A DNA stretch of 64,000 bases from Vulcanimicrobiota bacterium. GTDB lineage: Bacteria; Vulcanimicrobiota; Xenobia; Xenobiales; JADMJV01. The notes under the pieces are model-generated. The model was not told the DNA's origin. It did no database searches and worked only from the letters and a program-made list of their open reading frames with translations. Shown here piece by piece: positions 1-51,517 of this stretch. The DNA lies in contig JBFWNU010000001.1 of assembly GCA_050250895.1 (NCBI GenBank), positions 2,596,891 through 2,660,890 of the forward strand. The letters run 5' to 3'. The stretch's first letter is position 1. The number at the start of each line of letters is the position of its first letter. Both the position numbers and the translations under genes were made by a program.

Positions 1-542
1 CAGAGCAGGGCCAGCCATCCGGGGTGGGTCCATTTGAGGCTGGCCAGGGCCAGCAGCAGGCCTGCTGCTCCTAGCCAGAAGGGCGAGAATTCGAGCGAGG
101 GAACGAAGAAGAGCGGATTGGCGGGCAAGGCCCAGGGGGCCGTGCGCAGCCAGCTGGGAGTGGCCATCTCCACCCCTCCCTGTAGCAGCCAACCCGTCGC
201 GATAAGAGTCAGACTGGCCCAAACCCGCGCTCTGGCCAGCAAGGCCAGGCCGGCGAACAGCAGCGGCAGCCAGTTCGAGAGCGTGTCCTGACCAAAATAG
301 TGCTGGGCGGCCCACAGATTCGAGACCAGTGCAGCCATCGCCGCCCCAGCCACCAAGGGCTCTAGCTCGACCAGCACCAGACTCAGACCCAGCAGGTGGG
401 CCATCGTCAGCCGAGCGCGCAGCCAGGGGTTGTGGGCGTGGAACAACATGACGGCGGCCAGGATACAGCCGACTAACAGCAATACCCGTCTGGTTTTGGC
501 GTCTTGGCTCAAGGCCGGCAAGAGCCAGAAGCATAGGCCCAT
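1..542 (-). CDS. Multi-pass membrane protein, 3' end outside window
   Basis: Open frame from ATG at 542 (MGLCFWLLPALSQDAKTRRVLLLVGCILAAVMLFHAHNPWL...) to the window edge; very hydrophobic; not in the ORF track because it has no stop. Confidence 0.7.
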   Translation of the reverse strand, partial: MGLCFWLLPALSQDAKTRRVLLLVGCILAAVMLFHAHNPWLRARLTMAHLLGLSLVLVELEPLVAGAAMAALVSNLWAAQHYFGQDTLSNWLPLLFAGLALLARARVWASLTLIATGWLLQGGVEMATPSWLRTAPWALPANPLFFVPSLEFSPFWLGAAGLLLALASLKWTHPGWLALL

Positions 543-575
543 AGAGTCGCTACCCTACCAGTGTTTCATGGTCTG

Positions 576-604
576 TTGACAAGAAATATTTGCAGTGGTA
601 TAGT
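576..604 (+). promoter_or_regulatory. Sigma70-type promoter for the tRNA-like RNA
   Basis: TTGACA (576-581), 17 nt spacer, TATAGT (599-604), with extended -10 TG. Confidence 0.85.
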
Positions 605-610
605 GTGGTT

Positions 611-753
611 ATCGCGCCCTCACCGGTCGACCTTACATACTAACTGACTGTTAATCAGAAGGTTGCGGGTTCGAGTCCCGTCTTCTCCGCCAACTTGGAG
701 AAGTAGCTCAATTGGTAGAGCATCGTATACCACGGTCCATCAACTTGCGCGAA
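611..753 (+). ncRNA. Circularly permuted tRNA-Asn(GTT)-like RNA (Y RNA/YrlA-like)
   Basis: Order is anticodon arm CTGA-CTGTTAA-TCAG (644-658), T arm GCGGG-TTCGAGT-CCCGT (665-681), acceptor 3' strand CTTCTCC-G-CCA (682-692), linker ACTT, acceptor 5' strand GGAGAAG (697-703), D arm GCTC-AATTGGTA-GAGC (706-721); flanks pair (TCGCGC/GCGCGA, GACC/GGTC, ATAC/GTAT). Confidence 0.85.
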
Positions 754-757
754 TCAG

Positions 758-783
758 AAGCCCGGCTGCTAGCCGGGCTTTTT
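758..783 (+). terminator. Intrinsic terminator of the tRNA-like RNA
   Basis: AAGCCCGGCT-GCT-AGCCGGGCTT followed by a T run. Confidence 0.85.
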
Positions 784-809
784 GGTTTTACCTCGTCTGG
801 TTGGTGACC

Positions 810-1193
810 AGGGCCATCACCCCGCCGGCGTCGGTCATGCAGAGGCTGCGCGAGCATCGGATCCGCCAGCTCGAGACGCGCTTGGCCTTCGCCGGCACCT
901 ACGTCGACCACGGCTTCGGTTTCACCACGCGCACCGGGGCGCCGCTCCATGAGAGCAACGTTCAGAAAGCGTTTCGGCGGGTTTGCAAGCGGGCCGTGCT
1001 AGCCCCGGTGCGACTCTACACACTCCGGCATACCTGCGCCACCCTGATGCTGCTCCGCCGGGTGCCGCCGAAAATCGTTTCGGAGTGGCTCGGCCACGCC
1101 AGCATCACGATCACGCTGGATGTCTACTCCCACGTCCTGCCCAGTATGCGGCAGGAGGCGGCGGCTGAGCTGGAGGCTACCGGCCTGTTTTAG
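810..1193 (+). pseudogene. Tyrosine recombinase/integrase, C-terminal remnant
   Basis: YTLRHTCATL...LGHASITITLDVYSHVLP (xxLRH, LGH and catalytic Tyr motifs); N-terminal domains absent. Confidence 0.85.
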
Positions 1194-1194
1194 C

Positions 1195-1257
1195 CACGTG
1201 CTGCCGACGATGCAGCGTGAAGCGGCCAACGAGCTCGAGGCAACGGGGTTGTTTTGA
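1195..1257 (+). repeat. Diverged duplicate of the integrase's last 20 codons
   Basis: HVLPTMQREAANELEATGLF* versus HVLPSMRQEAAAELEATGLF* at 1131-1193. Confidence 0.85.
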
Positions 1258-1342
1258 CGGTTGGCGTCAAAATTTCAATTTTCTCGCGATCGGGCTGTGG
1301 AAAACCGCCTTGGAACGCCCTAGATAGCGAACATTCTGACGC

Positions 1343-1371
1343 TTGCACCTTAGTTCAGTCCGTCGTATAAT
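1343..1371 (+). promoter_or_regulatory. Sigma70-type promoter of the small TM peptide
   Basis: TTGCAC-17nt-TATAAT. Confidence 0.8.
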
Positions 1372-1440
1372 ACGCCGAGCCTATTTCCCCTCTGGGGGTC
1401 CAGGACGCAAGTCCTAGCTCCCCAGTAAGGAGAACCGCAA

Positions 1441-1536
1441 ATGTGGTTCGAAATAGACCCAAAAGTGCTAGTCTGCTTGATCGGCGCCATCGTTGCGATC
1501 GTGAAGGTGGTCTGGGCGTATAAGAAGGAAGACTGA
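1441..1536 (+). CDS. 31-aa hydrophobic peptide, putative type I toxin
   Basis: MWFEIDPKVLVCLIGAIVAIVKVVWAYKKED; SD AAGGAG 8 nt upstream; own promoter; one TM helix with charged tail. Confidence 0.75.
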   Translation: MWFEIDPKVLVCLIGAIVAIVKVVWAYKKED

Positions 1537-1648
1537 GAAATCCTCAGCCTTCCACTCAACGCGGAGGCCGCAGTCTAACCTTACCGGGGGACGACTGCGG
1601 TCTCCCTCTTTGCCAGCGTGACGGTGCGTTAACTTTACCGTATACGCT
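1520..1648 (-). ncRNA. Putative convergent antisense RNA (type I antitoxin)
   Basis: Minus-strand promoter TTGACA(1683-1678)-17-TATTCT(1660-1655); minus-strand hairpin GGAAGGCTGAG/CTCAGTCTTCC (G.U pair) followed by TTCTTAT at 1553-1520. Confidence 0.6.
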
Positions 1649-1977
1649 TGCCTCAGAATAGACGAATGACTCATCCGTGTCAACAGTTGTAAAGCGTTTC
1701 TGCATATTTAAAAGCCCGCAAATATAGGCTTTGCGCCGATTTTTGACGAGTTTCTATTCTAAATCGTCGAAGGAATCATATTCTAAATCGCTATCCTGTT
1801 CCCCGCGCAACGCTAGCATCGCATCCCTAAAAGATCCAGTTGCTCTTGGGTCGTGGCTGCGGCTTGGGTGCGCCCGACGGTGGTGGGGGTGGCTTGTGAC
1901 CTCCTGCCTTCGCGCGGAGGTGGCGGTGGCGGCGCTGGGTCGCCCGATGGCTTGGGTGAGCTTGCGCTCGGCTGGGC

Positions 1978-2077
1978 CGGCCACGCCAGTACACGATCAC
2001 GCTGGATGTAATACTCTCACTTGCCCAGCATGCGGCAGGAGGCGGCGGCTGAGCTGGAGGCTACAGGCCTGTTCCGA
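1978..2077 (+). repeat. Third, indel-degraded copy of the integrase 3' end
   Basis: Near-identical to 1091-1193 (e.g. ATGCGGCAGGAGGCGGCGGCTGAGCTGGAGGCTAC). Confidence 0.85.
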
Positions 2078-2198
2078 GGCCCTACTGTGTCCTGGCTTGG
2101 TGCAAGTTAGACTTCTGTTTGCGAACGAATTTTTGCGAGGATTCTGGACTTTGTAGAGAAGCAATCTTCGACATCATTTGGACACTAGGAGAATGTCG

Positions 2199-2399
2199 AT
2201 GCAACCCTACTATTTTGACAATATGACCTTCGGCCCACGCGGCTTCAACGCAACCACGGACCAAGACAAGTACATTCAGACGCTTTGGAAAAACGTTGCA
2301 AAGCTCATAGACATCGTACCTGCGCAAGATAAGCAGATAGAATCTTTGAAGCATGAAATCGAGACCCTACGCAAAGAAATCGAGGAGTTGAAGAGGTAG
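2199..2399 (+). CDS. Small coiled-coil protein
   Basis: SD AGGAGA upstream; C-terminal heptads QIESLKHEIETLRKEIEELKR. Confidence 0.55.
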   Translation: MQPYYFDNMTFGPRGFNATTDQDKYIQTLWKNVAKLIDIVPAQDKQIESLKHEIETLRKEIEELKR

Positions 2400-2419
2400 C
2401 CACGGCCGAAAAACGCTTC

Positions 2420-2872
2420 TTAGAAGACCCAGTTCTGCTCTTTGATCATCTCCAAGCAAGTAATGGCCGTGACGCCGTGTTGACGGCACAGCACAGGTAT
2501 TTTTGGGCGATCCGCTGAGCCCCTTCGGCGCTCCTGGGTGACAACTTTAAAGCCCATCTCCTTAGCGTAGGCTACGACATGGGGATCGGCTTCGTTCTCG
2601 TGACCGACGACGAGCCCGGGATACTTGTTGATGATCTCTCGGACAATGTTCTCGACTTTGGCGTTGGTCGACATCACCATTTGGCTGTGCATGTCTACCC
2701 ACTTCTTAAGGTGATCGTCCTTTCGGCCCAACTCAATATGAACCGCCTTCACGATGTGGAAGCGCCCTTGATTCACAAGGTTCTGGACCTGGGTCCAGAA
2801 CTGGGGAAAATTCTGATGAGGATAGAGATCGTTTTCGGCGGTGATCAGTGCCGAAGCATCGACGCTATACAC
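2420..2872 (-). CDS. DUF4411-family PIN-like protein
   Basis: MYSVDASALI...FPQFW...ADPHVVAYAK...VVTQE...KIPVLC motifs; GTG start overlaps the upstream stop. Confidence 0.8.
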   Translation of the reverse strand: MYSVDASALITAENDLYPHQNFPQFWTQVQNLVNQGRFHIVKAVHIELGRKDDHLKKWVDMHSQMVMSTNAKVENIVREIINKYPGLVVGHENEADPHVVAYAKEMGFKVVTQERRRGSADRPKIPVLCRQHGVTAITCLEMIKEQNWVF

Positions 2873-4076
2873 TCCAAGCTCCCTTCTTCTCGAGCAGTTG
2901 TCGCATCTCACTGAAATGCTGGACCTTTGCCCCGAGGTACCCAGAGGCGCTCGAGAGAGTGATGGTTCTGGAGTCGAGAGCGTCGAAAACCAGTCGAGAG
3001 TAGGCGACGCCGTTGTAGGCGACTTTCCGCACGGCGTATCTCGGGCCACCTTCGCTTTCAGCAAGGTTCTGTCGGTGCTCACGGCGTTGGGCCCTATACT
3101 GGCTAACCTTGCGGCCGAATTCAGCTTGGGTCATTCGATGGTGGTCGAGCAGCCTTCTAACGATGACATCGCGACTAACGGAGAAACGATTCGCAACCGA
3201 CTTTATAACTTCGTCGGGCCAGCGATTAGCATCGTCATGGGCATTGACCTCCTCGTCCCTTTCTAGAACGCTCCAAGGCACCAGCAACTCAGCGGCAAAC
3301 GCGTTGCAATAGACCTCAATCTCTCTTTGCTCGGGGGGGAGCCTGGAGTTGTCGGTGGCTTCGGCGTGCAACCCGGACACTCTCATTAGGACGTGGCCCA
3401 ACTCGTGGGCCATCGAAAACAGACGGCCCAATGGAGGGTCTTGGGTATTCACAGCGATGGTGGGTAGAGGTGTTTCTGCAATACAGACGCCTCTAAAAAC
3501 ATCGAGGTCGATTTCAGGGATCTGAAAAACCAAGAGCCCAGCATCCTCAAGAGCCCTCGTCCATAGCGAGACCGCTTCGTATTGGCCTCTGCACTTAAGT
3601 TGGCTCTCGAGAGTTAGTCCGAGGCGGGTGCGAATTTCTCCGGTAACCCGCGGAATCTCCGCCGGACTCGAACTTATGATCTCTATGTCACCAAGAAGAA
3701 AGTCGGGTGGTTCTTCCTGCAATTCCTCGTAGAGTTCCAGTGCTGTCCGCCGTCGATTTCGGATTTCACGTAGAGCAAAACGTAACTTCGGGGGATAGTC
3801 TTGAATCACACCGGGTAACGTGCGAAAGTCCGTCACCCCAGGGTCTTCGATTGGAGGTTTTTCGAGATAAAAGAGGCCGATGGGTCGGTCGAAGACATGG
3901 GCAGCCTTGGTCAACTGATTAAAGGACGGACGAAGCTCACCAGCCTCGAACGCCCTCAGTCGTTCCGGCTTGACCCCGACCTTGGCCGAGGCCTGCTCGA
4001 TGGTATAGCCAGCCGTCTCCCTAGCCCAGGTTAAGAGGGCCGGTGTGATCAGAGCTTCCACCTTTTCTTTAGCCAC
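2865..4076 (-). CDS. XRE-HTH / ImmA-IrrE family metallopeptidase
   Basis: N-terminal HTH (LTWARETAGYTIEQAS...), HELGH zinc motif, EVYCNAFAAELLVP. Confidence 0.9.
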   Translation of the reverse strand: MAKEKVEALITPALLTWARETAGYTIEQASAKVGVKPERLRAFEAGELRPSFNQLTKAAHVFDRPIGLFYLEKPPIEDPGVTDFRTLPGVIQDYPPKLRFALREIRNRRRTALELYEELQEEPPDFLLGDIEIISSSPAEIPRVTGEIRTRLGLTLESQLKCRGQYEAVSLWTRALEDAGLLVFQIPEIDLDVFRGVCIAETPLPTIAVNTQDPPLGRLFSMAHELGHVLMRVSGLHAEATDNSRLPPEQREIEVYCNAFAAELLVPWSVLERDEEVNAHDDANRWPDEVIKSVANRFSVSRDVIVRRLLDHHRMTQAEFGRKVSQYRAQRREHRQNLAESEGGPRYAVRKVAYNGVAYSRLVFDALDSRTITLSSASGYLGAKVQHFSEMRQLLEKKGAWSV

Positions 4077-4205
4077 GTAAGATCTCCACGGTACAACATG
4101 CGCTGCGGAATCGGGCTCTTCCTGTACCTCGGGAGAAGTGCCCCTATTCCATATTTATCCACAAGCTTGTGAATATCCATTGGTATTTTTCTACTAACTT
4201 CCAGC

Positions 4206-4946
4206 TTAGATCATTTCTTCATCGGGCAGGTCGACTTCGGCTACCCGAAGGAGTAAGTCGCCCAGTGAGGTGATTCTATAACCGTTCAGTTCCGGTCTGC
4301 CCTCGGAATCATAAACCGGTGTCTTCGTTTTTGGGTTGACCTTGTATTTCGGCTTGAGCAGCCCCAGTCGGGCCAAGTGTGCTCTGTAGCTATCGTCAAG
4401 CGCAACGGCATTCGCCCTCTCCTCGTCCATCGGATTTGATTTGGACGGAGGAGTGATGACCGAGCCATGGCGCCGCCTGAACTCGTGGTCCGTTGATAGC
4501 GCTGGCTGGTAGTATGACCGAAGAATGAGAAGCTCGATGTCGTTAATGTCACCGAGTATCTTCAAGAGATGCTTCGCTTGTATATGCGAGACCTGAGTGG
4601 ATGTTAGACTGCTTGCGACAACGGTCGCAATTTGGTCTATTCGACGCTTCCTAGTGGCTCTCGCCGCCTGAACGGCCCCTTCTTCGACAACATCAAGAAA
4701 CTCGGCGTCGTCCCAACAGGCGTCCTCGCTTGCCTGTTCGACTCGCTGGAGCCGAGCCTCCAATGCTTTGACGAAGCTCTCCACTCTATCTAGCCGTTGG
4801 CCTGGGATAGCGCCTATTGCCTCGGCGATGGCGCCGCCAACAAAGGGAACGAAGCTCGCCCCGGCTTTGAGCCCAGTGATGACTTTGTCGGTCCACAGCG
4901 AACCGATTTTGTCGCTGCTGATCTCTATGAGGCGGTCATCGCTCAT
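4206..4946 (-). CDS. Hypothetical island protein (possibly Abi-alpha/DUF4393-like)
   Basis: 246-aa ORF; VPFVGGAIAEAI N-terminal helix and winged-helix-like C-terminus (HLARLGLL...YRITSLG). Confidence 0.65.
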   Translation of the reverse strand: MSDDRLIEISSDKIGSLWTDKVITGLKAGASFVPFVGGAIAEAIGAIPGQRLDRVESFVKALEARLQRVEQASEDACWDDAEFLDVVEEGAVQAARATRKRRIDQIATVVASSLTSTQVSHIQAKHLLKILGDINDIELLILRSYYQPALSTDHEFRRRHGSVITPPSKSNPMDEERANAVALDDSYRAHLARLGLLKPKYKVNPKTKTPVYDSEGRPELNGYRITSLGDLLLRVAEVDLPDEEMI

Positions 4947-5118
4947 GCTACCTTACCCCCCTGACTTTGAATGGATCTCCGCGGCGGGTCCGGTAGCGGG
5001 GCTTGAGCCCCGGCGGCGGCCGCCAACCCTCAACAATGACCAGCTTGCCCTTCCAGAACGGCGAATCCCCAGGCGCGCGCAGTTGGCCGCTTGGGCTCGC
5101 CAGGGATGCAGGCGGGCA

Positions 5119-5652
5119 TCACAGCCGGTTCGAAATCGTGACGACCCCATAGGGTGCTCTGGTACTTTGCCAGCCGATCTGGTGAGCATCCGACTGAACG
5201 GAAACGATCAGGCTCCCTTCCTCCGACTGTTTCTGGAAACTGCAGCTGAAGACGCTTTTCGCATCCATGGTAAAGTTGTCGGGGATAGTCCCTGACACCG
5301 ATTTCTGACCGTTTACATCCCCATAGGAACCTTGGAATGGTGTCCCCGCGTCGCCAGAGACCTGAATGTTGATCTGGTGTGCTCCGAAGGACCCGAAGCT
5401 AGGCAAGCCGATTCCTGCGCCGGCCCACTTTATTCCGAGCCAGGCGAAGATGACCAATGCAAAGACTGCGATTCCGGCGGCCGCCTTCTTCTCCGTATCC
5501 GGATCCATCTTGACGCCGTGATGCTTGGTGAGGGCGTTCTCTACAACCGGTTGTGGCTTGGCGTCCGGTCGCTCCGCTAGCATCTCCCCGCAATGCTTAC
5601 ACTTGATGGCTTCGTCCTGGATCTCTTCGGCACAAAATGGGCACTTCTTCAT
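5119..5652 (-). CDS. Zinc-ribbon membrane protein
   Basis: MKKCPFCAEEIQDEAIKCKHCGE, TM helix, beta-rich exported domain; own SD-like GGGGAAG. Confidence 0.75.
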   Translation of the reverse strand: MKKCPFCAEEIQDEAIKCKHCGEMLAERPDAKPQPVVENALTKHHGVKMDPDTEKKAAAGIAVFALVIFAWLGIKWAGAGIGLPSFGSFGAHQINIQVSGDAGTPFQGSYGDVNGQKSVSGTIPDNFTMDAKSVFSCSFQKQSEEGSLIVSVQSDAHQIGWQSTRAPYGVVTISNRL

Positions 5653-5659
5653 AACTTCC

Positions 5660-6372
5660 CCCGGTCTAGCTCCCCCGCCCCGCCCGGCATAGCCGGCCGA
5701 AACCAGCACCACCAGGTCGTCGCCGGCCAGGGTCAGGCGATCCGAGTTGGAGAAGTAGTCGCGAGTCTCACGCAGCATCCGGGCCTCGAGCGCCTCGTAG
5801 GCCCGGCCCAGACTGACGGTGCGGCCCTCCTCTTGCGACACCCACAGCAGGCAACCGGGACAGCCGGCGTTGTAGGTCACCACCGAGGAGCGGGCCGGTT
5901 CGAATAACAAAATGGCCGTTTCGACCCGTTCACGAAAGCCCTGGCGGACCAGGTGTTCGAGTAACAGATAGGCGGCCAGGCCCGGGTCCGAGTCTTCTTG
6001 AAGCGAGGTCGTCAGCACGGCGAAGGCATCATCCGAGGGTCGGGCCAGGCTCTGGCCGTCGGCGTCGACCAGGCGAAGATAGGCCAGAGCGAAGCGACCC
6101 TGGCCAAGGTCGAGGGGGCGAAACCATTCCGGCCCAGCCCCGGGCACCACCTGATCGAGCAACGACAGTTCGAAGCGACCGGTAACCACCTGGCTGAGTT
6201 CTGCCGGTAGCGGACTCTGGATCTCTTCGCCGGACCTTCCCGGCGAGGTCTGGCGCACCGAAAAGCGCTGCACCAGCAGCACCGACCCGCAGTAGCTGCA
6301 GGTCACCTGTTGAGCGTCGCCCGGGTTGATGGGCGCGCCGCAACCCGGGCAATAGAGAGCGTGGAGCCTCAT
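5660..6372 (-). CDS. Zinc ribbon + degenerate SpoIIE/PP2C-like protein, probably truncated and fused in frame to the island gene
   Basis: CPGC...CSYC, YNAGC, LAGDDLVVLVSAGY; no stop before the next gene. Confidence 0.55.
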
Positions 6373-6446
6373 TCCCGGGCGTTCCCCGCCCGGGGCGGTG
6401 GTTCCTCGAAGGCAGGATCCCTCGCACCGGTCGACAACTGGGCCGC

Positions 6447-7013
6447 ATGGCTCGAATGCAAGGCCTCACTCGAGGCGGCGGTCTGTTGGCCCGAATCAGC
6501 TTTCTTTTCACTCACTGGCGCATGGGCAAAGTGGTCACGCCCTTGCGAATTCATGCTCTCTCCACCGGTGTGTTGTGGGGCATGACCCAAATGCAGACCG
6601 GCCAGGAATTGGCCAGCAAGCTGTCGCGGCGCCTCAAGTTGTTGGCTCAGCTGCGGGTGGCCTGGCTGGTCGGCTGCCCGTTTTGAAGTGACACGGCCTC
6701 TGCCGGCGGCAGAGAACACGGGCTCACGGCCGAGCAAATCCTGGCCGTGCCGGATTATGGCGAAAGCGAACTCTTCGATGAACTCGACAAGCTGGTGCTG
6801 GCCTATGCCGACGGGCTCACCACCACGCCGGCCCGGGTCGACGACGCGCTCTATGCCGACCTCGCTAAGAAACTCGGCAACGAGCAAATGGTTGAATTGA
6901 CATCGGCCATCGCCTGGAAAAATTATCTAGCTCGATTCAATTGCGGCTTTGCCGTCGAGGCCGAGGGGATGAGCGAAGCCGGCTTCTGTCTGCTGCCGGA
7001 TCAGGCCAATTAG
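6447..7013 (+). CDS. CMD/AhpD-family selenoprotein (CPF-Sec)
   Basis: ORFs 6447-6686 and 6747-7013 are in the same frame; TGA at 6684 falls in GCPF*; SECIS-like hairpin 6698-6714; CMD-like C-terminus ELTSAIAWKNYLARFN. Confidence 0.8.
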
Positions 7014-7050
7014 GGGTTGTTCTCGGCCGGGCATGAGGGTATAACAAAGT

Positions 7051-7461
7051 ATGCTGCAGTGGGCCCACCACATTCAGGAACACTACGGCGTAGAGCCCTT
7101 CACCTTTATCGCGCTCTACGTCTTTTTTCACGTGGTGGCGTTCTATGGGTGCCTGGCTCTGGCCCTGTTGCGTTTCAAAGCCGGCCGCAAATTGGCTGCC
7201 GGAGTATGCGTGGCCGGAGCCATCGTGAGCTACTTCGTTCCTTACGGCTATCTGGCCATGCTCGGGCATGACATGCCCCGGGCGGCCTGGATCGGGTTGT
7301 TGTTGGTGTTGGTGCTCTCGAGCGCATTTTTGCTCAGCAAGTTGCGCACCTTCGCTCGTAAGGCCGTGGCTGCGCCCAAACTCGCCAGGTCGCGCACCAG
7401 CACTACCCGTGCTCGCTCGGCCCAGCCGCCCCAGGCCTACGAACGAAGCGTCGGTCTGTGA
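7051..7461 (+). CDS. Membrane protein
   Basis: Three hydrophobic helices. Confidence 0.65.
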   Translation: MLQWAHHIQEHYGVEPFTFIALYVFFHVVAFYGCLALALLRFKAGRKLAAGVCVAGAIVSYFVPYGYLAMLGHDMPRAAWIGLLLVLVLSSAFLLSKLRTFARKAVAAPKLARSRTSTTRARSAQPPQAYERSVGL

Positions 7462-7574
7462 CGTGAAATTAAAACTCTCTTAACAATTTTCAGGTTTCTT
7501 TAACACTTTTCGCCTCTGTCTCGCCCTCGATGGCCTATAAGATAGGCCCATCGTAGCGAAGAAACGGAGCACCC

Positions 7575-8579
7575 ATGGGACTGATTAGAGGACGCGGACA
7601 GCATAGACCTATCTTCGGAGGACGACGTTTCTCGCGTCAGCGACCGGTGCAACACCAGTCGAGTCAGGTTCACCGGCCCGTGCAACAGCCTCAGGCCAAT
7701 CACACTCAGGCAGCCAACAAGCCCGCGCCGGCCACCAATACGGCCCCGGCCACTCAGAGCAAGCCAGCTCCCGCCAACAACGCGGCTCCCGCCGCTCAGA
7801 CCGCTAGTCAGCCCGCCCCTAGCACCCAGACCGGCTCGGCGGCACCGGCCAATCAGACCACCGCGCCCAAGCCTGCGGATACCTCCGGCCAGGGCTGGGG
7901 ACAGAAGCTATTCAACGGCTTCTCTAACCTGGTCGGTAGCGAGAACCTGGGCGCCATCGGCGCTGCCGGCAAATCCTTCAAGTTCAATGACACCGAGCGA
8001 CATACGGCCGAGTCGGGGTTGGCCGCTCTGCGCAAGATGGCCGGCAAAGACGGCGTTCTCACTCCTGACGACCGGGGCAACATCATCGGCCAGATGAACG
8101 GAGCCCTGACTCAGGAGAAGAACCGCCAGGTTGGCGCCATCGCCAATCAGAAGATCGCTCAGGCCAAAGCCAACCGGCCGCGCTTTCTGCAGCGGCTGGC
8201 CCCCAATGCGCCGCTGGTGTCGCGCATCGGAGCCAAGAAGAAGGCCGAAGCCATGCGCGACCCGCAGCACATGGCCACCGCTCGCAACACCGCCCTGGGC
8301 CAGCTCAGCCAGGGCATGCAGCAGATGGGCATGAACACCTCGGCCGGCGTCAACATGGGTCAGGGTCTTCGCAACGCCCAGAGCCTGCCGCCCATCAGCA
8401 TGCAAGATACGAAGAACTTCGAGCAGACCATGAAGATGGTCGAAGCCAAGGCCAAGGAGATGGGCCTGCCCGAGGGCAAGTTCAAAGAGGGCTTGTCGGT
8501 GAAGTTCCTCGAGGAAGTGCTAAAGGGAACCCCCGCCATCGGTCTGCGCCAGCATCAGCTCCACCCCTTTGGGCAGTGA
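7575..8579 (+). CDS. Hypothetical protein with Q/P/A-rich N-terminus
   Basis: SD GGAG; host-like codon usage; 334 aa. Confidence 0.75.
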   Translation: MGLIRGRGQHRPIFGGRRFSRQRPVQHQSSQVHRPVQQPQANHTQAANKPAPATNTAPATQSKPAPANNAAPAAQTASQPAPSTQTGSAAPANQTTAPKPADTSGQGWGQKLFNGFSNLVGSENLGAIGAAGKSFKFNDTERHTAESGLAALRKMAGKDGVLTPDDRGNIIGQMNGALTQEKNRQVGAIANQKIAQAKANRPRFLQRLAPNAPLVSRIGAKKKAEAMRDPQHMATARNTALGQLSQGMQQMGMNTSAGVNMGQGLRNAQSLPPISMQDTKNFEQTMKMVEAKAKEMGLPEGKFKEGLSVKFLEEVLKGTPAIGLRQHQLHPFGQ

Positions 8580-8585
8580 GTGATA

Positions 8586-8726
8586 CTAGGGGCGTTGCTC
8601 GAGTCTATCGACACGAGGCTCTAGCCGGTCGCTGCGATCGAACTTCTCTTCCAGCCTGTCGAGCTTGCAGCCCTGCTCCTCCAGGGTGTTGGTGTTTTTC
8701 TTCACCTCTGCTCTTAGCTCTTCCAT
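8586..8726 (-). CDS. 46-aa coiled-coil peptide, leaderless
   Basis: MEELRAEVKKNTNTLEEQGCKLDRLEEKFDRSDRLEPRVDRLEQRP; TTGTCG-17-TATGCT ends 6 nt before ATG. Confidence 0.45.
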   Translation of the reverse strand: MEELRAEVKKNTNTLEEQGCKLDRLEEKFDRSDRLEPRVDRLEQRP

Positions 8727-8800
8727 TGGACCAGCATACGGCAATCGTGACATCTCGACAAGAAGACAAACATTCGCCGCTTCATCTCGGGTTGTCTACG

Positions 8801-9493
8801 TCAGGCCATGTCCAGCGGCACGATGCGCGCTGTTGGGATCCGCGCGTCGACGATGGCTCGGGCCAGGTTGAACCAGGCGGCGGCCCGGTCCAGGATGGCG
8901 CTATCGGCGCTGGCAATCATGGCTGCGCAATCAGCCAGGAGGGGATCGGGGTCAGGGACCAGTTCGACCGTCCACGGCCAGCCTCGCTGGTCAGCCAGTT
9001 CGCGCACCAGAGCGGCCAGGCGTCCGCTGTTGGAGACGGGTTGATCGAATAACCAGTGAGCCTCGGTGGGGCCCGTGAACTCACCCACCAGAACCACCGC
9101 CTGGGCTGTCTCGTCGACCCGGCGGTAGGTCCCGTGCAGGCTGGCCATGTCGCGATAACAGCCATCTTGGGCTGCCAGGATGAAGCCTCCAGCCAGAGCC
9201 GCCTCGAGGGTGGTCAGCAGGTTGAAGCCGTCGATCCACAGACGAGAAGCGAGCCTGGTGCACTGGCGAGATAGGCGGGCCGCTCGCTCCTGCTCGGAAC
9301 AGGTGCAGCGGCTCACCGCGATGCGCTGGCGCTCGCGCAGTTGATGGTGGTCGCCCACGAGCTTGAGGGCCGACTTGCGAGCATAGCCGCGGCTCAAAAG
9401 CCAGCTGAGTTCGGCGGTGGCCGCCTGGAGCTCGGGCCAGGTCGAGGGGGCGAAGAGTTCTTCGTCCTCAGGGTGAGGCCCCCGGTGCCTCAT
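8801..9493 (-). CDS. DUF434 domain protein
   Basis: LSWLLSRGY...ALKLVGDHHQL...IDGFNLL...DMAS...PVSNSG. Confidence 0.8.
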   Translation of the reverse strand: MRHRGPHPEDEELFAPSTWPELQAATAELSWLLSRGYARKSALKLVGDHHQLRERQRIAVSRCTCSEQERAARLSRQCTRLASRLWIDGFNLLTTLEAALAGGFILAAQDGCYRDMASLHGTYRRVDETAQAVVLVGEFTGPTEAHWLFDQPVSNSGRLAALVRELADQRGWPWTVELVPDPDPLLADCAAMIASADSAILDRAAAWFNLARAIVDARIPTARIVPLDMA

Positions 9494-10866
9494 TCGATAT
9501 AGACCGGATTGGAAAGGCCCAGAATGCGATCGTGGGCCAGAATCTCTTCCGGGGTCATCCCGAACGGCAGCCCGGTGGTGGCATGGTACTGGCGGACCAG
9601 CCCGGAATAGGCGTGGTCTTCGGCCACCGGGATGAACAGCTCCAGGCGCACGAAATCCTGACCCCTCAGCACGAAGGGCTGGTCCTGAGCTTTGCCCTGC
9701 ATGACCACGCCCTGGCTATCGACCACTCGGAGTTGGCATTCGCCGGCCCCGATCAGCTTGATTTCAAGCGGCGTTCCCCCGGGTAGGGTTTGGCCGGTGA
9801 CCACTTTGCCCTCGTGCTCGAAGTAGGCCATCGGGCCGTTGGGGCCCTCCGAGATGGAGGCTCCTCCGGCTTTGAGGGCGGCCAGAATGTCGGCTTCGGC
9901 GTTGCTTTGAGCATAGACCCAGGTGGTGGGGCCGCCCAGCTGCAGGAGGGGGTGGTCGGGGTCGGGCAGGGGCGGCTGATGGCGATCGCTGCCTCCCACC
10001 GCCGGGAGGCGACGTCCTGCACACAAGAGCTTGTGCCACAGCTCGAGCGAAACCCAGTTGCGGGTGGCCCAGGGCAAGTTCCAGACCTCGATGCAGTCGA
10101 CATCGTCCCAGTAGTCGTATTTCCAGTCGTCGTGAATCGGCTTGGGGTGGTTGACCACCCGCAGGGCACCGCCCTGGCGGGCGCTGGCCAGAGCCTGCTT
10201 GAGGCCCTCGAGATCGTCGAAGCGAAAGTCGATCCACTGGCCCGTGCCCAGGGCGTTGAAGTGACCTTTGTAGGTGGTCACCTCCTGGCCCAGGATCAGG
10301 GTCAGGCCCCAATCGCCCCTCATCTCGAGGTGGTGGGCGATAGTGTTGTGGTCGGTCACGGCCAGAAAATCGAGTTGCTTCTGGCGGGCCATCTGCAACA
10401 GTTCGTCGAGACTCCCCAGGGCATCGGAGTGGTGGGTGTGGCAGTGCAGGTCGCCCTTGAGCCAGCCCGGCCCTCGGCGGGGATTGTCCAGGTCAGGAGA
10501 CTGCGAACCGAGCCGGCGGCGGTCTTCGTCGCTGGCCCGAATCGAGAGGTGGACGGTGGTGGGCTCGCTCACCTGATAGCGGCCTAACAGAATCTTCCAG
10601 CGGCCGGCCTCGAGGGGCCCGGCCAGATAGCCGGGTGTGGCCGAAGAGGTGGCCACGTAGAACTCTTCCCGAGCCGCCCCGCTCCAGCCGCGAAAGCCCC
10701 GCAGACTGGGATAGTCGGTCAGTTCGGGTCCGCCCAGACCGATGTCGACCCGAGCCTGACCCTCGGCATAGTAGCTCACTTCGAGGCAGCGCACGCCATC
10801 GGGCAGGTCGATGGGAACCTCCACGAAGGCGGGCCCCTCGGGACGCAATTCTACTTCCAATTCCAT
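9490..10866 (-). CDS. PHP-fold metallohydrolase (CehA/McbA-like)
   Basis: GDLHCHTHHSD, VTDHN, VNHP, GGSDRH. Confidence 0.85.
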   Translation of the reverse strand: MELEVELRPEGPAFVEVPIDLPDGVRCLEVSYYAEGQARVDIGLGGPELTDYPSLRGFRGWSGAAREEFYVATSSATPGYLAGPLEAGRWKILLGRYQVSEPTTVHLSIRASDEDRRRLGSQSPDLDNPRRGPGWLKGDLHCHTHHSDALGSLDELLQMARQKQLDFLAVTDHNTIAHHLEMRGDWGLTLILGQEVTTYKGHFNALGTGQWIDFRFDDLEGLKQALASARQGGALRVVNHPKPIHDDWKYDYWDDVDCIEVWNLPWATRNWVSLELWHKLLCAGRRLPAVGGSDRHQPPLPDPDHPLLQLGGPTTWVYAQSNAEADILAALKAGGASISEGPNGPMAYFEHEGKVVTGQTLPGGTPLEIKLIGAGECQLRVVDSQGVVMQGKAQDQPFVLRGQDFVRLELFIPVAEDHAYSGLVRQYHATTGLPFGMTPEEILAHDRILGLSNPVYIE

Positions 10867-10993
10867 TCTTAGCACGGGTGCCCACTTTGGCGCCCCGAGG
10901 CGGGCATCCTTTGGCGAGAGGTTCACAGTTCGGTGACAAATCGTTCATCTGGGCGGCATAGATTTGGGAGCAACTTCGAAAGGACTCTTCGTC

Positions 10994-13219
10994 ATGATTT
11001 CACGCCTCAACAGCCAGCCCATCCTGCCCGCCAGCCGCCCCGCCACCGCTCCCGCGGCGGCCGAGGCCAGCGCCGAGCCCGCCGACCAGGCGGCCATCAG
11101 CTCGGGTCGGGTCGACCTGGCGGCCGTGCTTAAAGCTACCGCTCGCGAAGCCGCTTCGCTCGAGCAGAAGCTGCCGGCCCACATGCCCGGCGAGTTGCTG
11201 GTGAAAACGCCTTCCGGCATGGCCCTCGAGAGCATCGAGCTGCTGGCCGCTGACTATGGCGCTACCGTCATCGAGAAGTTCCAGGTGCCCGACAAGATGA
11301 AGGCGGCCTTCGGAGGCGAATTGGTCCAGCTCAAGCTGCCCGCCAACCTCAGCGTGGCCCAGGCCATGGCCGCCATGAACAAAGACGAGCGCGTCGTCTA
11401 TGCCGAGTGCAACGCCAAGCGCGAATTGCTGGCCAACCCGGTCACTCCAAACGACCTCGACCCCGCTCTCTGGGGCCTCAACAACACCGGCCAGAACGGC
11501 GGCACGGCCGACGCCGACATCGACGCTCCCGAAGCCTGGGCTCTGACCCATGGCTCGCGTTCGGGCCCGGTCATCGCCGTCATCGACACCGGCGTCGACT
11601 ACAATCACCAGGACCTGGCCGCCAACGTCTGGACCAATCCTAACGAGATCGCCGGCGACGGCATCGACAACGACGGCAACGGGGTGGTTGACGACGTGCA
11701 CGGCTACAATGCCGCCGACAACTCGGGCAACCCCCTCGATGACAACAGCCACGGCAGCCACTGTTCGGGCACCATCGGAGCCGTCGGCAACGACGAGCAC
11801 GGTGTGGTCGGCGTCAACTGGGAAGCCCAGATCATGGGCGTGAAGTTCCTTTCGGCCACCGGCGGTGGCTCGGTAGCCGACGTGGTCAAGAGCGTGTTCT
11901 ACGCCACCCAGAACGGCGCCCGTATCACCTCCAACTCGTACGGCGGCGGAGCTGCCGAGGCCGAACGCGAGGCCTTTGCCGCCTCGCCGCTCCTGCACAT
12001 CTGCGCGGCCGGCAACGAGTCGAGCGACAACGACCGGCGCGGCTCCTTCCCGGCCACCTACGACCTGCCCAACATCGTCTCGGTGGCGGCCACCGACCGC
12101 AACGACGCCCTGGCCCGCTTCTCGAACTGGGGCGCCACCACGGTCGACCTGGCCGCCCCCGGCGTCGACATCAAATCGACCGTGCCCGGCGGTGGCTACG
12201 ACAGCTACAGCGGCACCTCGATGGCCACCCCGCATGTGGCCGGTGTGGCCGGCCTCATCGCCACCCTCTATCCCGACGCCACCAACGACCAGATCAAGGC
12301 TCGCTTGATGAACGGCACCGACAAGAAGCCCAACCTGGCTGGCAAGATGGTCAGCGGCGGTCGCCTCAACGCCTATAACGCCCTCGAGAACGACCAGGTC
12401 GCTCCCGGCGCTCCCAACGACTTCCGCCAGGCTAGCGCCAACAGCCGCGGCGTGACCCTGAGTTGGACCGCCACCGGCGACGACGGCTGGTGCGGCGGGG
12501 CTCCTAACGGTTACGAACTGCGCGTGTCGGATCGTCCCATCGTCGACGGCGAGGCCCAGCAGGGCGAAGTGTCGTTCGACCAGGCGACCCCGGTAGCCAC
12601 GGCTGCCCCGGCCGAGACCGGAACCATCGAGCAGGCTGGCGTCAGCCTGGTGCCCTCGGGCTCCGAGCGCACTCTCTATTTCGCCCTCAAGGTGACCGAC
12701 AATGTCGGCAACGCCTCCGAGATTCGCACCACCAGCGCCGCCGTGCCGGCCGCCGCCGTGTCGTTCGAAGACGACATGTCCCAGGCCAACGACAACTGGG
12801 CCGCCCAGTCGGGCTGGGCCCGGGTCGAGGTCGATGGCCGTCACGCCTACACCGACAGCCCCAACGGGCAGTATGGCAACGACGCCAACACCTCGTTGAC
12901 CTCCAAGACCCTATCGCTGGCCAACTCGACCGGCTCGACCCTGATCTTCGACTCGAAGTTCGATCTCGAGTCGGGCTATGACTACATCAACATCGAGGTG
13001 GCCGAGATCGTGCCTCCGGCCCAGGGCCAGCCCCCGGCCGAACCGGTCTTCACCAGCCTGCAGCGCTTCGACGGCGCCTCGGATTGGGCCACCCGCACGC
13101 TCGACCTGTCGGCTTATGACGGCAAAGAAGTGCAACTGCGTTTCCGCCTGACCAGCGACTCGAGCCAGACCCGCGATGGGTTCTATCTGGGCAAAGTGGT
13201 CATCGCCGGCGACAACTAG
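10994..13219 (+). CDS. S8 subtilisin-like serine protease with FN3-like and beta-sandwich C-terminal domains
   Basis: VIDTG, HGSHCSG, GTSMATPHVAG catalytic triad motifs; no Sec signal. Confidence 0.93.
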   Translation: MISRLNSQPILPASRPATAPAAAEASAEPADQAAISSGRVDLAAVLKATAREAASLEQKLPAHMPGELLVKTPSGMALESIELLAADYGATVIEKFQVPDKMKAAFGGELVQLKLPANLSVAQAMAAMNKDERVVYAECNAKRELLANPVTPNDLDPALWGLNNTGQNGGTADADIDAPEAWALTHGSRSGPVIAVIDTGVDYNHQDLAANVWTNPNEIAGDGIDNDGNGVVDDVHGYNAADNSGNPLDDNSHGSHCSGTIGAVGNDEHGVVGVNWEAQIMGVKFLSATGGGSVADVVKSVFYATQNGARITSNSYGGGAAEAEREAFAASPLLHICAAGNESSDNDRRGSFPATYDLPNIVSVAATDRNDALARFSNWGATTVDLAAPGVDIKSTVPGGGYDSYSGTSMATPHVAGVAGLIATLYPDATNDQIKARLMNGTDKKPNLAGKMVSGGRLNAYNALENDQVAPGAPNDFRQASANSRGVTLSWTATGDDGWCGGAPNGYELRVSDRPIVDGEAQQGEVSFDQATPVATAAPAETGTIEQAGVSLVPSGSERTLYFALKVTDNVGNASEIRTTSAAVPAAAVSFEDDMSQANDNWAAQSGWARVEVDGRHAYTDSPNGQYGNDANTSLTSKTLSLANSTGSTLIFDSKFDLESGYDYINIEVAEIVPPAQGQPPAEPVFTSLQRFDGASDWATRTLDLSAYDGKEVQLRFRLTSDSSQTRDGFYLGKVVIAGDN

Positions 13220-13294
13220 GGCAGCTTCGCTGCGAAAAGGAGCGGCTGCGCCGAGAGTTCGCCTTCGGCGACAAGTGGCGGCGCTCCGCGCCGA

Positions 13295-13326
13295 GAAGGG
13301 CGGCCTGGGCCGCCCCTTTCTTTTTG
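13295..13326 (+). terminator. Intrinsic terminator
   Basis: GGGCGGCC-TG-GGCCGCCC followed by T-rich tail between convergent genes. Confidence 0.65.
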
Positions 13327-13331
13327 GCTGT

Positions 13332-13727
13332 CTACTTTAACTCGCGTAGGACGGCGGCGTCGGTTTGCAGGCGGAAGGTGGTCTCGCTGCCAGCGATGTC
13401 GCGTTGGTAGAGGCCGTGGGTGAACAGGCCCAGCCCTACCGTGGTGGTGGCGATCGAGGCAACCTGCAAGGGTAGGGGGTTGTTGAGCAGGCTCGAGGCC
13501 ACCGTGCCGGTCAGGCCGGCGATGAGAGTGCCCAGGCCGATCTTGGCCCGCTGGTGGCCGCGGGCGGCCTGGTGTCGATAGGCCGCAAGTTGCTCTTGCA
13601 CCCGGGCTAGTTCGGCGTCGACCCGGTCCACCCGGTCCTGGCCCTGCAGGCTGGCCAGTTCCGTGTAGGGCACTTCGCGATAAGGCTGGGGTCGCACGGT
13701 AGTTTGGTTGGCAGGCGTGAGTCTCAT
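13332..13727 (-). CDS. Hypothetical two-TM protein
   Basis: Coiled coil followed by a hydrophobic hairpin; TATCAT 6 nt before ATG. Confidence 0.65.
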   Translation of the reverse strand: MRLTPANQTTVRPQPYREVPYTELASLQGQDRVDRVDAELARVQEQLAAYRHQAARGHQRAKIGLGTLIAGLTGTVASSLLNNPLPLQVASIATTTVGLGLFTHGLYQRDIAGSETTFRLQTDAAVLRELK

Positions 13728-13811
13728 AACCCGATGATAGAGATCGAGCCTGAAGAAAACCTAAACCTCCGTCCCAGGCGGGAAATCGAACGCGACGCCG
13801 AAGATTACCCT

Positions 13812-14060
13812 ATGTCGGATCTTCACGAACCTACACCTTGCCCTGGCTGCGGGCGAGTGATGCGGTCCAACCTGCGAGAGTGCGCCTTTTGCGGCGCCAT
13901 GATTCGTCAGGACCTGCCGCCGGTCGACCCTGACTTTGAAGAGCTAGCCAAAGCCAAGAATTCTCCCATCTTTCGCTTTATCGTGTGGGCCTTCGGCGCC
14001 ATTCTGGTGGTGGCCGTGGTGGGCAGCATTCTGCTCAACTTCTCGGTCATCTTCCAGTAG
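13812..14060 (+). CDS. Small zinc-ribbon membrane protein
   Basis: CPGC...CAFC plus C-terminal TM. Confidence 0.65.
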   Translation: MSDLHEPTPCPGCGRVMRSNLRECAFCGAMIRQDLPPVDPDFEELAKAKNSPIFRFIVWAFGAILVVAVVGSILLNFSVIFQ

Positions 14061-14903
14061 CTACAGGGCCGTGTAGCGCCGGCCTTGCTCGAGACTGAGC
14101 GGAGCGTTGGCGCCGGCTACCGCAAATCTCAGGGGCAGCGATTCGCGCAGCCTGCCGCTTTTGGCTTTGAACACCATGAAGTGCAGGTGGGGCCCGCCGC
14201 TGTAGCCACTGTTGCCCGAGTATCCCAGCAGGTCTCCCACCTCGACTACCGTGCCCGGCTTGACCGCCACGCCTCCCGCCTTGAGGTGGAAATACTCGGC
14301 CACCGTGTCGTCTTCATGCTGTACGAACACGTAGTTGCCGCCGATCTCCTTGCCCAGGGCAGCATAGCGAAAGTCGTCTTCGGTATCGACCACCACCCCG
14401 GCTCGGGCGGCCAACACCGGCGTGCCGATGGGCATGTCGAAGTCGACGGCGTGGAAAGACTCGCCGGAATGGCTGAACTCGCCTCCAGGCCCCTGGCTGA
14501 CCCCGAAGGTCTTACCCGAGGCAAAAGGCAGATGATAGATGCAGTCCGGGTCGTGATGGGCGGTCAAGGAGCCCCACACCCAATGGTAGTCGACCGAGAT
14601 CTGGTGCCCCGGCGCGGTCTTCCAGAGACGGGCCACACAAACGGTGGTGGCTCCGGGAATCACGCGCTCCAGTGGCAATTGCTCTTCGGGAGCCAGGTGG
14701 TGGACGATCCTCCAGTCAAACGAGGCGGTCACCATCACGCCATAGCGATTGTCGACGATGACTTCCACAAACCGGTCCGACTCGACCACTTCCACATCGC
14801 AGTGGATGTGCCGCTTGACGGGGCGCTTCTTCTCTTTTTGCGCGATGTAGACGAGCCAGGCGGTGACACCCAGCAAAACCCATTCCAACACGGCCCGCTC
14901 CAC
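14061..14903 (-). CDS. M23 family metallopeptidase
   Basis: HAVDF, YFHL, GNSGYSGGPHLHF; N-terminal TM. Confidence 0.9.
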   Translation of the reverse strand: MERAVLEWVLLGVTAWLVYIAQKEKKRPVKRHIHCDVEVVESDRFVEVIVDNRYGVMVTASFDWRIVHHLAPEEQLPLERVIPGATTVCVARLWKTAPGHQISVDYHWVWGSLTAHHDPDCIYHLPFASGKTFGVSQGPGGEFSHSGESFHAVDFDMPIGTPVLAARAGVVVDTEDDFRYAALGKEIGGNYVFVQHEDDTVAEYFHLKAGGVAVKPGTVVEVGDLLGYSGNSGYSGGPHLHFMVFKAKSGRLRESLPLRFAVAGANAPLSLEQGRRYTAL

Positions 14904-14953
14904 GTCCCCGCAGGCTCATTCTCTACCTGAGGCTGGCCTGCCTTTTCGTGGGT

Positions 14954-15808
14954 TTAAGAGAAACTGTCGCTCTGGTTGAGTTCCTGGAGGGCGCTGGCCA
15001 GCGAAGCGTGCTGGCGCTCGATGGCTTTCATCGAGGTCTCGGCTTCGGGAAAATGCTGGCCCTTCTCGCGTCGCTTTTCGATGGTGCTACGAATCAGCTG
15101 CAGAGCGGCCCCGATCGAGCTGGCCCCCTCGGTGACCAGACCCTTGGTCCAGTCAAAAGCGAAGCGTCCGACCTCGAGGTGACCGATGGGCGAGAGAGCG
15201 TTTGGGTCGCGCGTGGCCGCCGCCATCTGCAGTTCGGGAGTCAAGAAATTGAGACCGCTCTTGTCCTGCAACTCGCTCGGGTCGACCAGGGTCGAAGCCT
15301 TGTGAATTCCCTGATTGAGGCGATTCATGCCGGTCATCAACGAGACCATCGGGCGCAGCATGCCGGCCAGGCTCGAGGCGGTGGTGAGCACGCCACGGAT
15401 GGCGGCCATCAGAGCGCCCTGGTCGGCCTGGCTGGCGATGGCTTTAGCCAGGTCTTTCATGGCCTTGCGGAAGTTGCGGAAATACTTGGCCACCTTCTTG
15501 TTGAGCTTGCGCATCAGGTGGATCAGGGTGTTCTTGCCTTTGGTGTTCCAGTGATAGGTGTCGTGCTGGCGGTCCAGGCGGTTCTGCAGATCGTGCTGTT
15601 TATCTTGATAGGCGCGGCGTTCGCCTTCGCTCGGCTCGGCCGTGGTGCGCAAAGCAAAATGCAAACGGTCGCTGGTGCGCAGGCGGGCCCAGCGCTCCCC
15701 CGGTCGCACAGGCCGGGAGTGGGGCGCAGCGGGCCGAAAGTCGGCCGTCTGGCACAGGGTCGGCAGGTGAGCCGCGAAGAGTCTTTCTTGAACCGCCAGG
15801 GCTTGCAT
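14954..15808 (-). CDS. Hypothetical helical protein
   Basis: 284-aa ORF, SD AAGGA, host codon usage. Confidence 0.65.
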   Translation of the reverse strand: MQALAVQERLFAAHLPTLCQTADFRPAAPHSRPVRPGERWARLRTSDRLHFALRTTAEPSEGERRAYQDKQHDLQNRLDRQHDTYHWNTKGKNTLIHLMRKLNKKVAKYFRNFRKAMKDLAKAIASQADQGALMAAIRGVLTTASSLAGMLRPMVSLMTGMNRLNQGIHKASTLVDPSELQDKSGLNFLTPELQMAAATRDPNALSPIGHLEVGRFAFDWTKGLVTEGASSIGAALQLIRSTIEKRREKGQHFPEAETSMKAIERQHASLASALQELNQSDSFS

Positions 15809-15900
15809 GCTTATCCTTCACGGCCGTCCTTCGGAGGGTCAACCCGAGCAACAAAGGTTTAACATTGACAACATTTTGGATCCTGTCTAATATTGGTGTC

Positions 15901-17569: not shown

Positions 17570-17580
17570 TGAGCGGACTT

Positions 17581-18603: not shown

Positions 18604-18658
18604 GGGCGGCCATTCGACGGCCCAGGGGGAACCCCTCGACTAGCGAAACTGGCTTCTT

Positions 18659-51390: not shown

Positions 51391-51517
51391 ACGATCTGTT
51401 TCGCGCAAGCAAGGAGAGTTCCCATCGTTCGAGCGAACTAGGCCGAAAGGCTTAGGTCGAACGGACGATCTTGGTGTCCTCTATTGTTCCCGATGAAGCG
51501 GCAGCCTATAATCCGGA

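Follow-up and report, generated by a model that had tools for sequence, protein, structure and literature searches.

A candidate type I toxin-antitoxin-like locus with predicted 3'-overlapping convergent transcription units in low-GC DNA of a Vulcanimicrobiota bacterium

Results

The stretch of DNA analysed here, which we call the window, covers 64,000 nucleotides (nt) of contig JBFWNU010000001.1 from a Vulcanimicrobiota bacterium (GenBank assembly GCA_050250895.1, positions 2,596,891 to 2,660,890 of the forward strand). Positions 1343 to 1683 of the window hold a short plus-strand open reading frame (ORF) with its own promoter and a structured 5' untranslated region (UTR), and a convergent promoter on the minus strand whose predicted RNA would run back over the stop codon. 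A first-pass annotation had described this locus as an unannotated type I toxin-antitoxin-like module. The elements on which it had relied, namely the two promoters, the leader hairpin with its GCAA loop, the ORF and two 3' hairpins with opposite strand preferences, were all recovered at the positions it had assigned. The description as unannotated fits the records: the peptide sequence is known only from a 909-nt Logan contig, the NCBI record carries no ORF at this place, and the neighbouring genes are found in both.

The ORF (1441-1536, plus strand) encodes a peptide of 31 amino acids (aa), MWFEIDPKVLVCLIGAIVAIVKVVWAYKKED. Its ATG at 1441 follows the Shine-Dalgarno (SD) motif AAGGAG after an 8-nt spacer. 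The peptide consists of an acidic N-terminus, a single hydrophobic helix and a YKKED tail, and its maximal Kyte-Doolittle mean over 15 residues is 2.93. Based on a single-sequence AlphaFold2 model, a helix is predicted over residues 7-30 with a mean predicted local distance difference test score (pLDDT) of 87.6, consistent with the single transmembrane segment proposed earlier. No other hydrophobic ORF of 18-60 aa with a preceding SD occurs in the window, and first-order Markov simulations gave a mean of 0.16 such ORFs per 64-kb window. A small hydrophobic ORF by itself is not decisive, because 15 of 100 simulated windows also yielded at least one. Other genomes, sampled as 132 regions of 730 nt, returned none under the same filter. 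Eight sites in the window combine AAGGAG with an ATG 4-10 nt downstream, five of which open ORFs of at least 59 aa, and the 3' end of the 16S rRNA contains CCTCCT. The GC content at third codon positions (GC3) of the ORF is 0.74 as compared with a GC content of 0.55 in the surrounding 619 nt (binomial P 0.024), akin to the core genes dnaG (0.75) and rpoD (0.79). A GC3-like value of 0.74 is reached by 4.5% of the 93-nt windows in the segment, and the GC3 of the ORF is a modest coding signature.

Upstream of the ORF, the plus-strand promoter TTGCAC-17-TATAAT (-35 at 1343-1348, -10 at 1366-1371) would start the mRNA near A1378. The pattern TTG-N20-TATAAT occurs at two sites in the window, both strands counted, as compared with 0.05 expected, and none of 100 shuffles reached two. 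The promoter is missing from the list of our consensus scan because its -35 element matches at just 3 of 6 positions. The only other site, within 51484-52168 (plus strand), immediately precedes an ORF at 51518 with a DUF6088 domain.

The 5' UTR (1378..1440, plus strand) contains a hairpin at 1392-1425 (-20.5 kcal/mol, z-score -4.15 on the plus strand), followed by the SD motif at 1427-1432. The 93-nt leader folds with -38.2 kcal/mol (z -4.90). The predicted mRNA from 1378 to 1615 (238 nt) folds with -102.6 kcal/mol (z -4.37), and none of 200 shuffles was equally stable. The ribosome-binding site of this mRNA is predicted to be sequestered, since G1429, G1430 and positions 1432-1438 are paired with a probability of at least 0.99 in the ensemble. 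The AUG is part of a small hairpin formed with the first codons, where it falls in both loop and stem; pairing between codons 4-6 and the extreme 5' end closes this hairpin.

Two hairpins could form the 3' end of the mRNA. A 13-bp hairpin at 1563-1605 (plus strand), followed by the weak U-tract CTCTTTGCC, is a likely 3' end or stabiliser. It has one G.U pair on the plus strand, where it is more stable than on the minus strand (-29.8 versus -24.4 kcal/mol). Our scan did not call it terminator-like, owing to its 17-nt loop and too few T residues. A second, terminator-like hairpin with a better T-tract (1717..1745, plus strand) would provide an alternative 3' end and an mRNA of ~368 nt. The longer transcript (1378-1746) folds with -140.7 kcal/mol (z -5.19) and would span the entire antisense gene.

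On the minus strand, the promoter TTGACA-17-TATTCT (-35 at 1683-1678, -10 at 1660-1655) matches the consensus at 10 of 12 positions and faces the ORF, with a predicted start near 1648. The pattern TTGACA-N17-TANNNT was found at five sites in the window, as compared with 0.07 expected. The remaining sites lie at 576, which is the promoter of a small-RNA gene described below, at 15865, and at 33827 and 33921. The positions of these sites indicate that the pattern marks the places where strong promoters are expected in a genome of ~62% GC. Sites 33827 and 33921 precede, by 332 and 238 nt respectively, the 16S gene of an rRNA operon (33827-39169, plus strand) that comprises 16S (34159-35674), 23S (35949-38954) and 5S (39053-39169) genes.

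Based on the promoter and terminator positions, the minus-strand unit would produce a non-coding antisense RNA of ~130 nt (1648-1518), in agreement with the extent proposed in the first-pass annotation. No AUG occurs in the sequence of this predicted RNA, whose fold (-55.2 kcal/mol, z -4.48) was equalled in stability by none of 200 shuffles. The putative terminator is a hairpin at 1553-1527 (site 1517..1553, minus strand) with the tail TTCTTATACG, and has 11 pairs in the RNA fold and 12 by scan. It lies ~100 nt past the promoter and ranks third among 26 terminator-like sites in positions 1-20000, where only the terminator of the small-RNA gene (756) and a site at 13298 are placed higher. The hairpin has one G.U pair on the minus strand, where it is more stable than on the plus strand (-18.4 versus -14.2 kcal/mol), and it spans codons 29-31 and the stop codon of the plus-strand ORF. 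The predicted antisense RNA overlaps codons 27-31, the stop codon (1534-1536) and the 3' UTR of the mRNA. Perfect complementarity between the two RNAs extends over ~93 nt (1520 to ~1612) with both hairpins included, as follows from their genomic position.

The co-occurrence of two rare promoter patterns, an SD-ATG pair, a hydrophobic ORF and strand-appropriate hairpins within 340 nt is well beyond chance. Judging from these signals, both transcription units are probably real. The two G.U asymmetries, each in the appropriate direction, are a weak detail, as both would arise by chance in about one case in four if they are single transitions.

The module is, by its composition, in acquired low-GC DNA. 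The GC content is 0.49 for 1401-1800 and 0.49-0.57 up to ~4800, as compared with ~0.62 for the window. A 5'-truncated tyrosine-integrase fragment (810-1193, plus strand) matches residues ~249-380 of relatives of ~380 aa and is immediately followed by a second copy of the last ~20 integrase codons (1196-1257, plus strand). The integrase 3' end recurs a third time, as a frameshifted remnant, at 1973-2075 (plus strand), where 89 of 100 aligned positions are identical to 1091-1189 with 5 gaps. The integrase 3'-end remnants bracket the module with a spacing of ~886 nt, and the truncated fragment adjoins the terminator of the small-RNA gene. A perfect 12-nt direct repeat, TATTCTAAATCG, is present at 1755-1766 and 1779-1790 (plus strand), 24 nt apart. 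These are its sole two copies in the window, where none is expected, and the repeat may represent a site for protein binding that belonged to the decayed element.

Identity to relatives of the integrase reaches 54-57% at most, and to full-length relatives at most 54%. The integrase fragment was aligned with 24 relatives, taken from the best 28 of 44 found, and 80 related loci (769,227 nt) were fetched. In 15 of the 41 loci scanned, the integrase end has a convergent tRNA gene no more than 300 nt away. The related loci are ordinary tRNA-targeting elements, and because related integrases neighbour convergent tRNA genes, the position of the module would normally be an attachment region. No tRNA fragment was detected in the module, and ARAGORN found no tRNA anywhere in the window, including the 16S-23S spacer. 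The idea that the module is linked to this integrase family was rejected, as no peptide, DNA or ORF counterpart was found in the related loci. The best DNA match to the module in the 80 loci was 20 nt long (E 0.074). In the 700 nt that follow the integrase stop, none of 70 loci had a small hydrophobic ORF with a preceding SD, and the control gave none in 62.

Six overlapping ORFs offered alternative coding readings: 1468-1683, 1350-1559, 1556-1705 and 1754-1984 on the minus strand, and 1731-2156 and 1254-1370 on the plus strand. These readings were rejected, with no Pfam match at E<=10 for any of the six. The ORFs at 1468-1683 and 1754-1984 also had no PHROGs match at E<=0.1.

Further along the low-GC block, two overlapping minus-strand ORFs (window 2420-4076) encode a DUF4411 protein and a 403-aa protein with a helix-turn-helix (HTH) plus an ImmA/IrrE (Peptidase_M78) domain. 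The HTH-ImmA/IrrE protein gives matches to the RmrA models of PADLOC (best E 4.3e-17), and its match to the NCBIfam spr1629 repressor/antitoxin model is below the cut-off. In domain content, the two resemble a toxin-antitoxin or defence pair, and they share the low-GC block with the module. On the other side, the small-RNA gene (576-792, plus strand) has the promoter TTGACA-17-TATAGT (11 of 12 matches) and a canonical terminator at 756-782 plus a T-tract. In its RNA, a tRNA-like domain is circularly permuted: the T arm comes first, then the closed acceptor stem and then the D arm. The RNA scores 38.8 bits (E 1.4e-6) against Rfam YrlA, below the gathering score of 69, and the match covers model positions 24-84 of 114, which is the tRNA-like core. 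The Ro-binding stem of YrlA was unmatched in the small RNA, and no TROVE/Ro domain was found among the ORFs scanned. The proteins neighbouring the module are singletons at 90% identity. For RpoD, the closest sequence is 87% identical, and named relatives are labelled Vulcanimicrobiota or Candidatus Eremiobacteraeota. By these relatives, the host appears to be a member of Eremiobacterota/Vulcanimicrobiota, a placement at the level of the phylum only.

Discussion

Type I loci have been defined by an mRNA of 150-400 nt and a protein of 20-60 aa (PMC8594479), and the toxin is usually described as hydrophobic with one alpha-helical transmembrane segment (PMC8594479, PMC12390103). The 31-aa peptide, with its single modelled helix, has the size (20-60 aa) and hydrophobic character of such a toxin, and the predicted mRNA of ~235 or ~368 nt is within the published range of 150-400 nt (PMC8594479). 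In Fst/RNAII, TxpA/RatA, YonT, SprA1, SprG and BsrE-G-H, the antisense gene is located 3' of the toxin gene with a partial overlap of the mRNA (PMC8594479). The families with this 3'-side arrangement are all described in that paper, on the database T1TAdb, as Gram-positive, and the ORF is overlapped too except in Fst and SprA1 (PMC8594479). The locus fits the 3'-overlap class of TxpA/RatA, BsrE-G-H, YonT and SprG/SprF in layout only, not by homology, and it is in this sense that the TxpA/RatA- and BsrG/SR4-type arrangement named in the first-pass annotation applies.

The B. subtilis systems are all found on prophage-like elements; their toxins measure 29-59 aa and their antitoxins 100-222 nt (PMC6562991). 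In bsrE/SR5 (element P6) and bsrG/SR4 (prophage SPbeta), the genes are likewise convergent, the RNAs pair at their 3' ends and the antisense RNA covers the end of the ORF. The toxins of these two systems have 30 and 38 aa, the mRNAs 255-294 nt and the antitoxins 163-180 nt (PMC6562991); the locus described here is comparable, with 31 aa and predicted RNAs of ~235-368 nt and ~130 nt. Location on an acquired element, a toxin SD that is here predicted to be partly sequestered and plausible hairpin-loop recognition are further points of likeness. Unlike bsrE/SR5 and bsrG/SR4, the present locus is in a host outside the Firmicutes, and has no sequence similarity to any library family and no Rfam antitoxin match. 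The RNAs of txpA/RatA on the B. subtilis skin element also overlap at their 3' ends on an acquired element. RatA is described as acting solely via RNase III cleavage of the duplex (PMC6562991), TxpA has 59 aa and RatA 222 nt, and the peptide found here is unrelated.

The Fst/RNAII pair of par on the Enterococcus plasmid pAD1 is likewise convergent and has a single-helix toxin of ~30 aa. A single bidirectional terminator serves both par RNAs, whereas two distinct hairpins are present here. Fst mRNA and RNAII pair outside the overlap and the antisense RNA spares the ORF (PMC8594479), whereas the overlap here covers the stop codon. A trans-acting, Fst-like interaction at the 5' end of the mRNA was rejected, as the complementarity was no better than in shuffles. 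The peptide did not match Fst_toxin (PF13955) at E<=10, which places it outside the Fst/RNAII family. Matches in a language-model atlas were all below 0.9, with 0.84 for the best, which has no name, and 0.76 for Fst, the nearest cluster that has a name; the latter score is a lead, not evidence. The msoT1/msoA1 pair of Microcystis aeruginosa is likewise a candidate found by architecture, not homology, beyond the Proteobacteria, Firmicutes or Tenericutes (PMC12390103). MsoT1 has two predicted transmembrane helices and impairs E. coli growth (PMC12390103), as compared with one predicted helix in the peptide here.

Taken together, the locus is best read, if still tentatively, as an orphan 3'-overlap type I toxin-antitoxin-like module. 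What the analysis establishes is the sequence signals and how rare they are, the RNA folds, the predicted helix and a GC3 like that of coding sequence; both transcripts, translation, toxicity, neutralisation and any part in DNA retention are our inference. The plus-strand promoter would make an mRNA of ~235 nt, or of ~368 nt by read-through to the second terminator-like hairpin, whose folded leader would tie up the SD and the first codons and which would encode the single-helix membrane peptide as the presumed toxin. The strong convergent promoter would make the ~130-nt non-coding RNA complementary to ~93 nt of the mRNA. Pairing would probably begin between the complementary hairpin loops at the 3' ends and then proceed to a duplex, which could make the mRNA a target for double-strand-specific cleavage, as is the case for RatA and SR5. 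Alternatively or in addition, refolding of the mRNA could lower its translation, as with SR4. Because complementarity to the 5' part of the mRNA does not exceed chance, 3'-end loop-loop recognition with duplex-dependent decay would be the simplest mechanism; by analogy with SR4 (PMC6562991), an additional effect on the SD fold is possible.

Several observations weigh against a type I module. The peptide has no relatives in the collections searched: phmmer against 1.84 billion representatives returned the query itself only, the peptide cluster is a singleton, and no second copy was found in the window. Searches of plasmids and phages by tblastn and blastn gave no match, and the best peptide match in the 80 related integrase loci had an E value of 1.6. 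A degenerate back-translated pattern with ten fixed features, which catches close relatives only, had no match among species-representative genomes. The pattern matches the window once, where none is expected, and since it misses the window itself among those genomes, the source genome is absent or masked there. The peptide had no hits in Pfam (E<=10), NCBIfam (E<=1), PADLOC (E<=1) or PHROGs (E<=0.1). Rfam, which includes 13 type I antitoxin families (PMC8594479), had no match within 1343-1683 at E<=10. In these searches, the locus thus matched no type I toxin or antitoxin sequence family of Pfam, NCBIfam or Rfam. At 31 aa, phmmer detects fairly close relatives only, and gene callers often skip ORFs of 31 codons. 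Given these limits, the absence of relatives makes the peptide an orphan and does not show the gene to be false.

The RNA features include counterpoints as well. The plus-strand hairpin at 1563-1605 is without a proper U-tract, and the tail of the antisense terminator (TTCTTATACG) is interrupted. The 5' UTR hairpin offers no strand argument because its minus-strand fold is better (-23.7 versus -20.5 kcal/mol on the plus strand), and given this stability, minus-strand transcription past the antisense terminator into a longer RNA is conceivable. The mean accessibility of the ribosome-binding site (-14 to +3) is 0.37, and since this falls inside the span of 0.20-0.59 for 14 other gene starts in the window, sequestration is not distinctive in this GC-rich genome. 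The antisense RNA has no additional complementarity to the 5' part of the mRNA beyond chance, as 289 of 300 and 133 of 300 shuffles scored equally well. Finally, only 2 of 6 type I toxins predicted by architecture in Microcystis impaired E. coli growth when tested (PMC12390103). We take this rate as a rough prior for predictions from architecture only, which often fail.

The same two transcripts would also be expected if the peptide were a harmless accessory or regulatory membrane protein and the cis-antisense RNA merely tuned its level. Signals for transcription and translation are silent on toxicity, the peptide matches no toxin family, and 4 of the 6 predicted Microcystis toxins tested were without effect on E. 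coli growth (PMC12390103). However, the low-GC acquired setting, the integrase relics and the adjacent toxin-antitoxin-like pair are typical of addiction or defence cargo, and type I systems classically combine a hydrophobic helix, Lys-rich at one end, with a strong promoter dedicated to the antisense RNA (PMC8594479, PMC6562991). We regard a harmless protein as unlikely.

The relics around the locus raise another explanation, in which the promoters, hairpins and 12-nt repeats are attachment or regulatory leftovers of a decayed integrative element, the minus-strand RNA is an orphan small RNA or the hairpin a mere terminator, and the ORF is fortuitous and untranslated. The segment 1258-1972 does lie between integrase 3'-end remnants, at a position that is normally an attachment region (a convergent tRNA gene in 15 of 41 related loci), with the 12-nt repeat at 1755-1766 and 1779-1790; the peptide is an orphan, and an SD-preceded small hydrophobic ORF turned up in 15 of 100 simulated 64-kb windows. 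Mere debris would not be expected to hold a near-consensus promoter at the right distance, an AAGGAG 8 nt from the ATG, a host-like GC3 (P 0.024) and an antisense unit whose target is precisely the stop codon. The co-occurrence of such features in 340 nt is unlikely given patterns expected 0.05 and 0.07 times per 64 kb, and the module contains no detected tRNA fragment. Debris is accordingly rather improbable in our view. The unusual structure of both strands (z -4.4 to -5.2) and a 5' hairpin that is stable on both would also suit a convergent pair of non-coding RNAs, in which the plus transcript is a structured small RNA that acts in mutual regulation or on other targets and the ORF is irrelevant. 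This is very unlikely in view of the strong SD at ideal spacing, the ATG, the hydrophobic helix-forming ORF and its GC3 bias, and no Rfam family matches either RNA.

Returning to the orphan type I module, the interpretation put forward in the first-pass annotation is, overall, partly supported by the sequence evidence. Its suggestion of a new type I family stands as far as no relative is present in the collections searched, which amounts to an orphan only. Conservation of the ORF among homologous loci, which it had set as a check, was not borne out, as neither a peptide nor a DNA homologue was found, the 80 related-integrase loci included. Stabilisation of the island found no support either. 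The integrases are a 5'-truncated fragment and two short 3'-end remnants, and no intact element is left. Because the flanking integrase genes are relics, stabilising the island is at best a past role, and a speculative one.

According to the Microcystis study, the known type I systems come solely from Proteobacteria, Firmicutes and Tenericutes, to which it adds the first cyanobacterial candidate, and its authors attribute this narrow range to homology-based search methods (PMC12390103). Our literature searches returned no paper that connects Eremiobacterota/Vulcanimicrobiota with a type I toxin or with toxin-antitoxin systems. The locus could be the first type I system of this phylum, with a toxin that has no relative in the collections searched and with the 3'-overlap layout otherwise described from Gram-positive bacteria only, and maybe a self-sufficient unit of ~0.7-0.9 kb between integrase 3'-end repeats, an addiction module that has outlived its decayed island; we consider this full proposition doubtful. 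If the locus is debris or encodes a harmless small protein, the finding is an ordinary one. If the proposition is true, the type I range would be widened to Eremiobacterota/Vulcanimicrobiota, a new toxin family would be added, and the 3'-overlap design would not be confined to Gram-positive bacteria. It would also provide, from a phylum that has hardly been studied, a compact pair of strong promoters with a structured mRNA and its antisense RNA.

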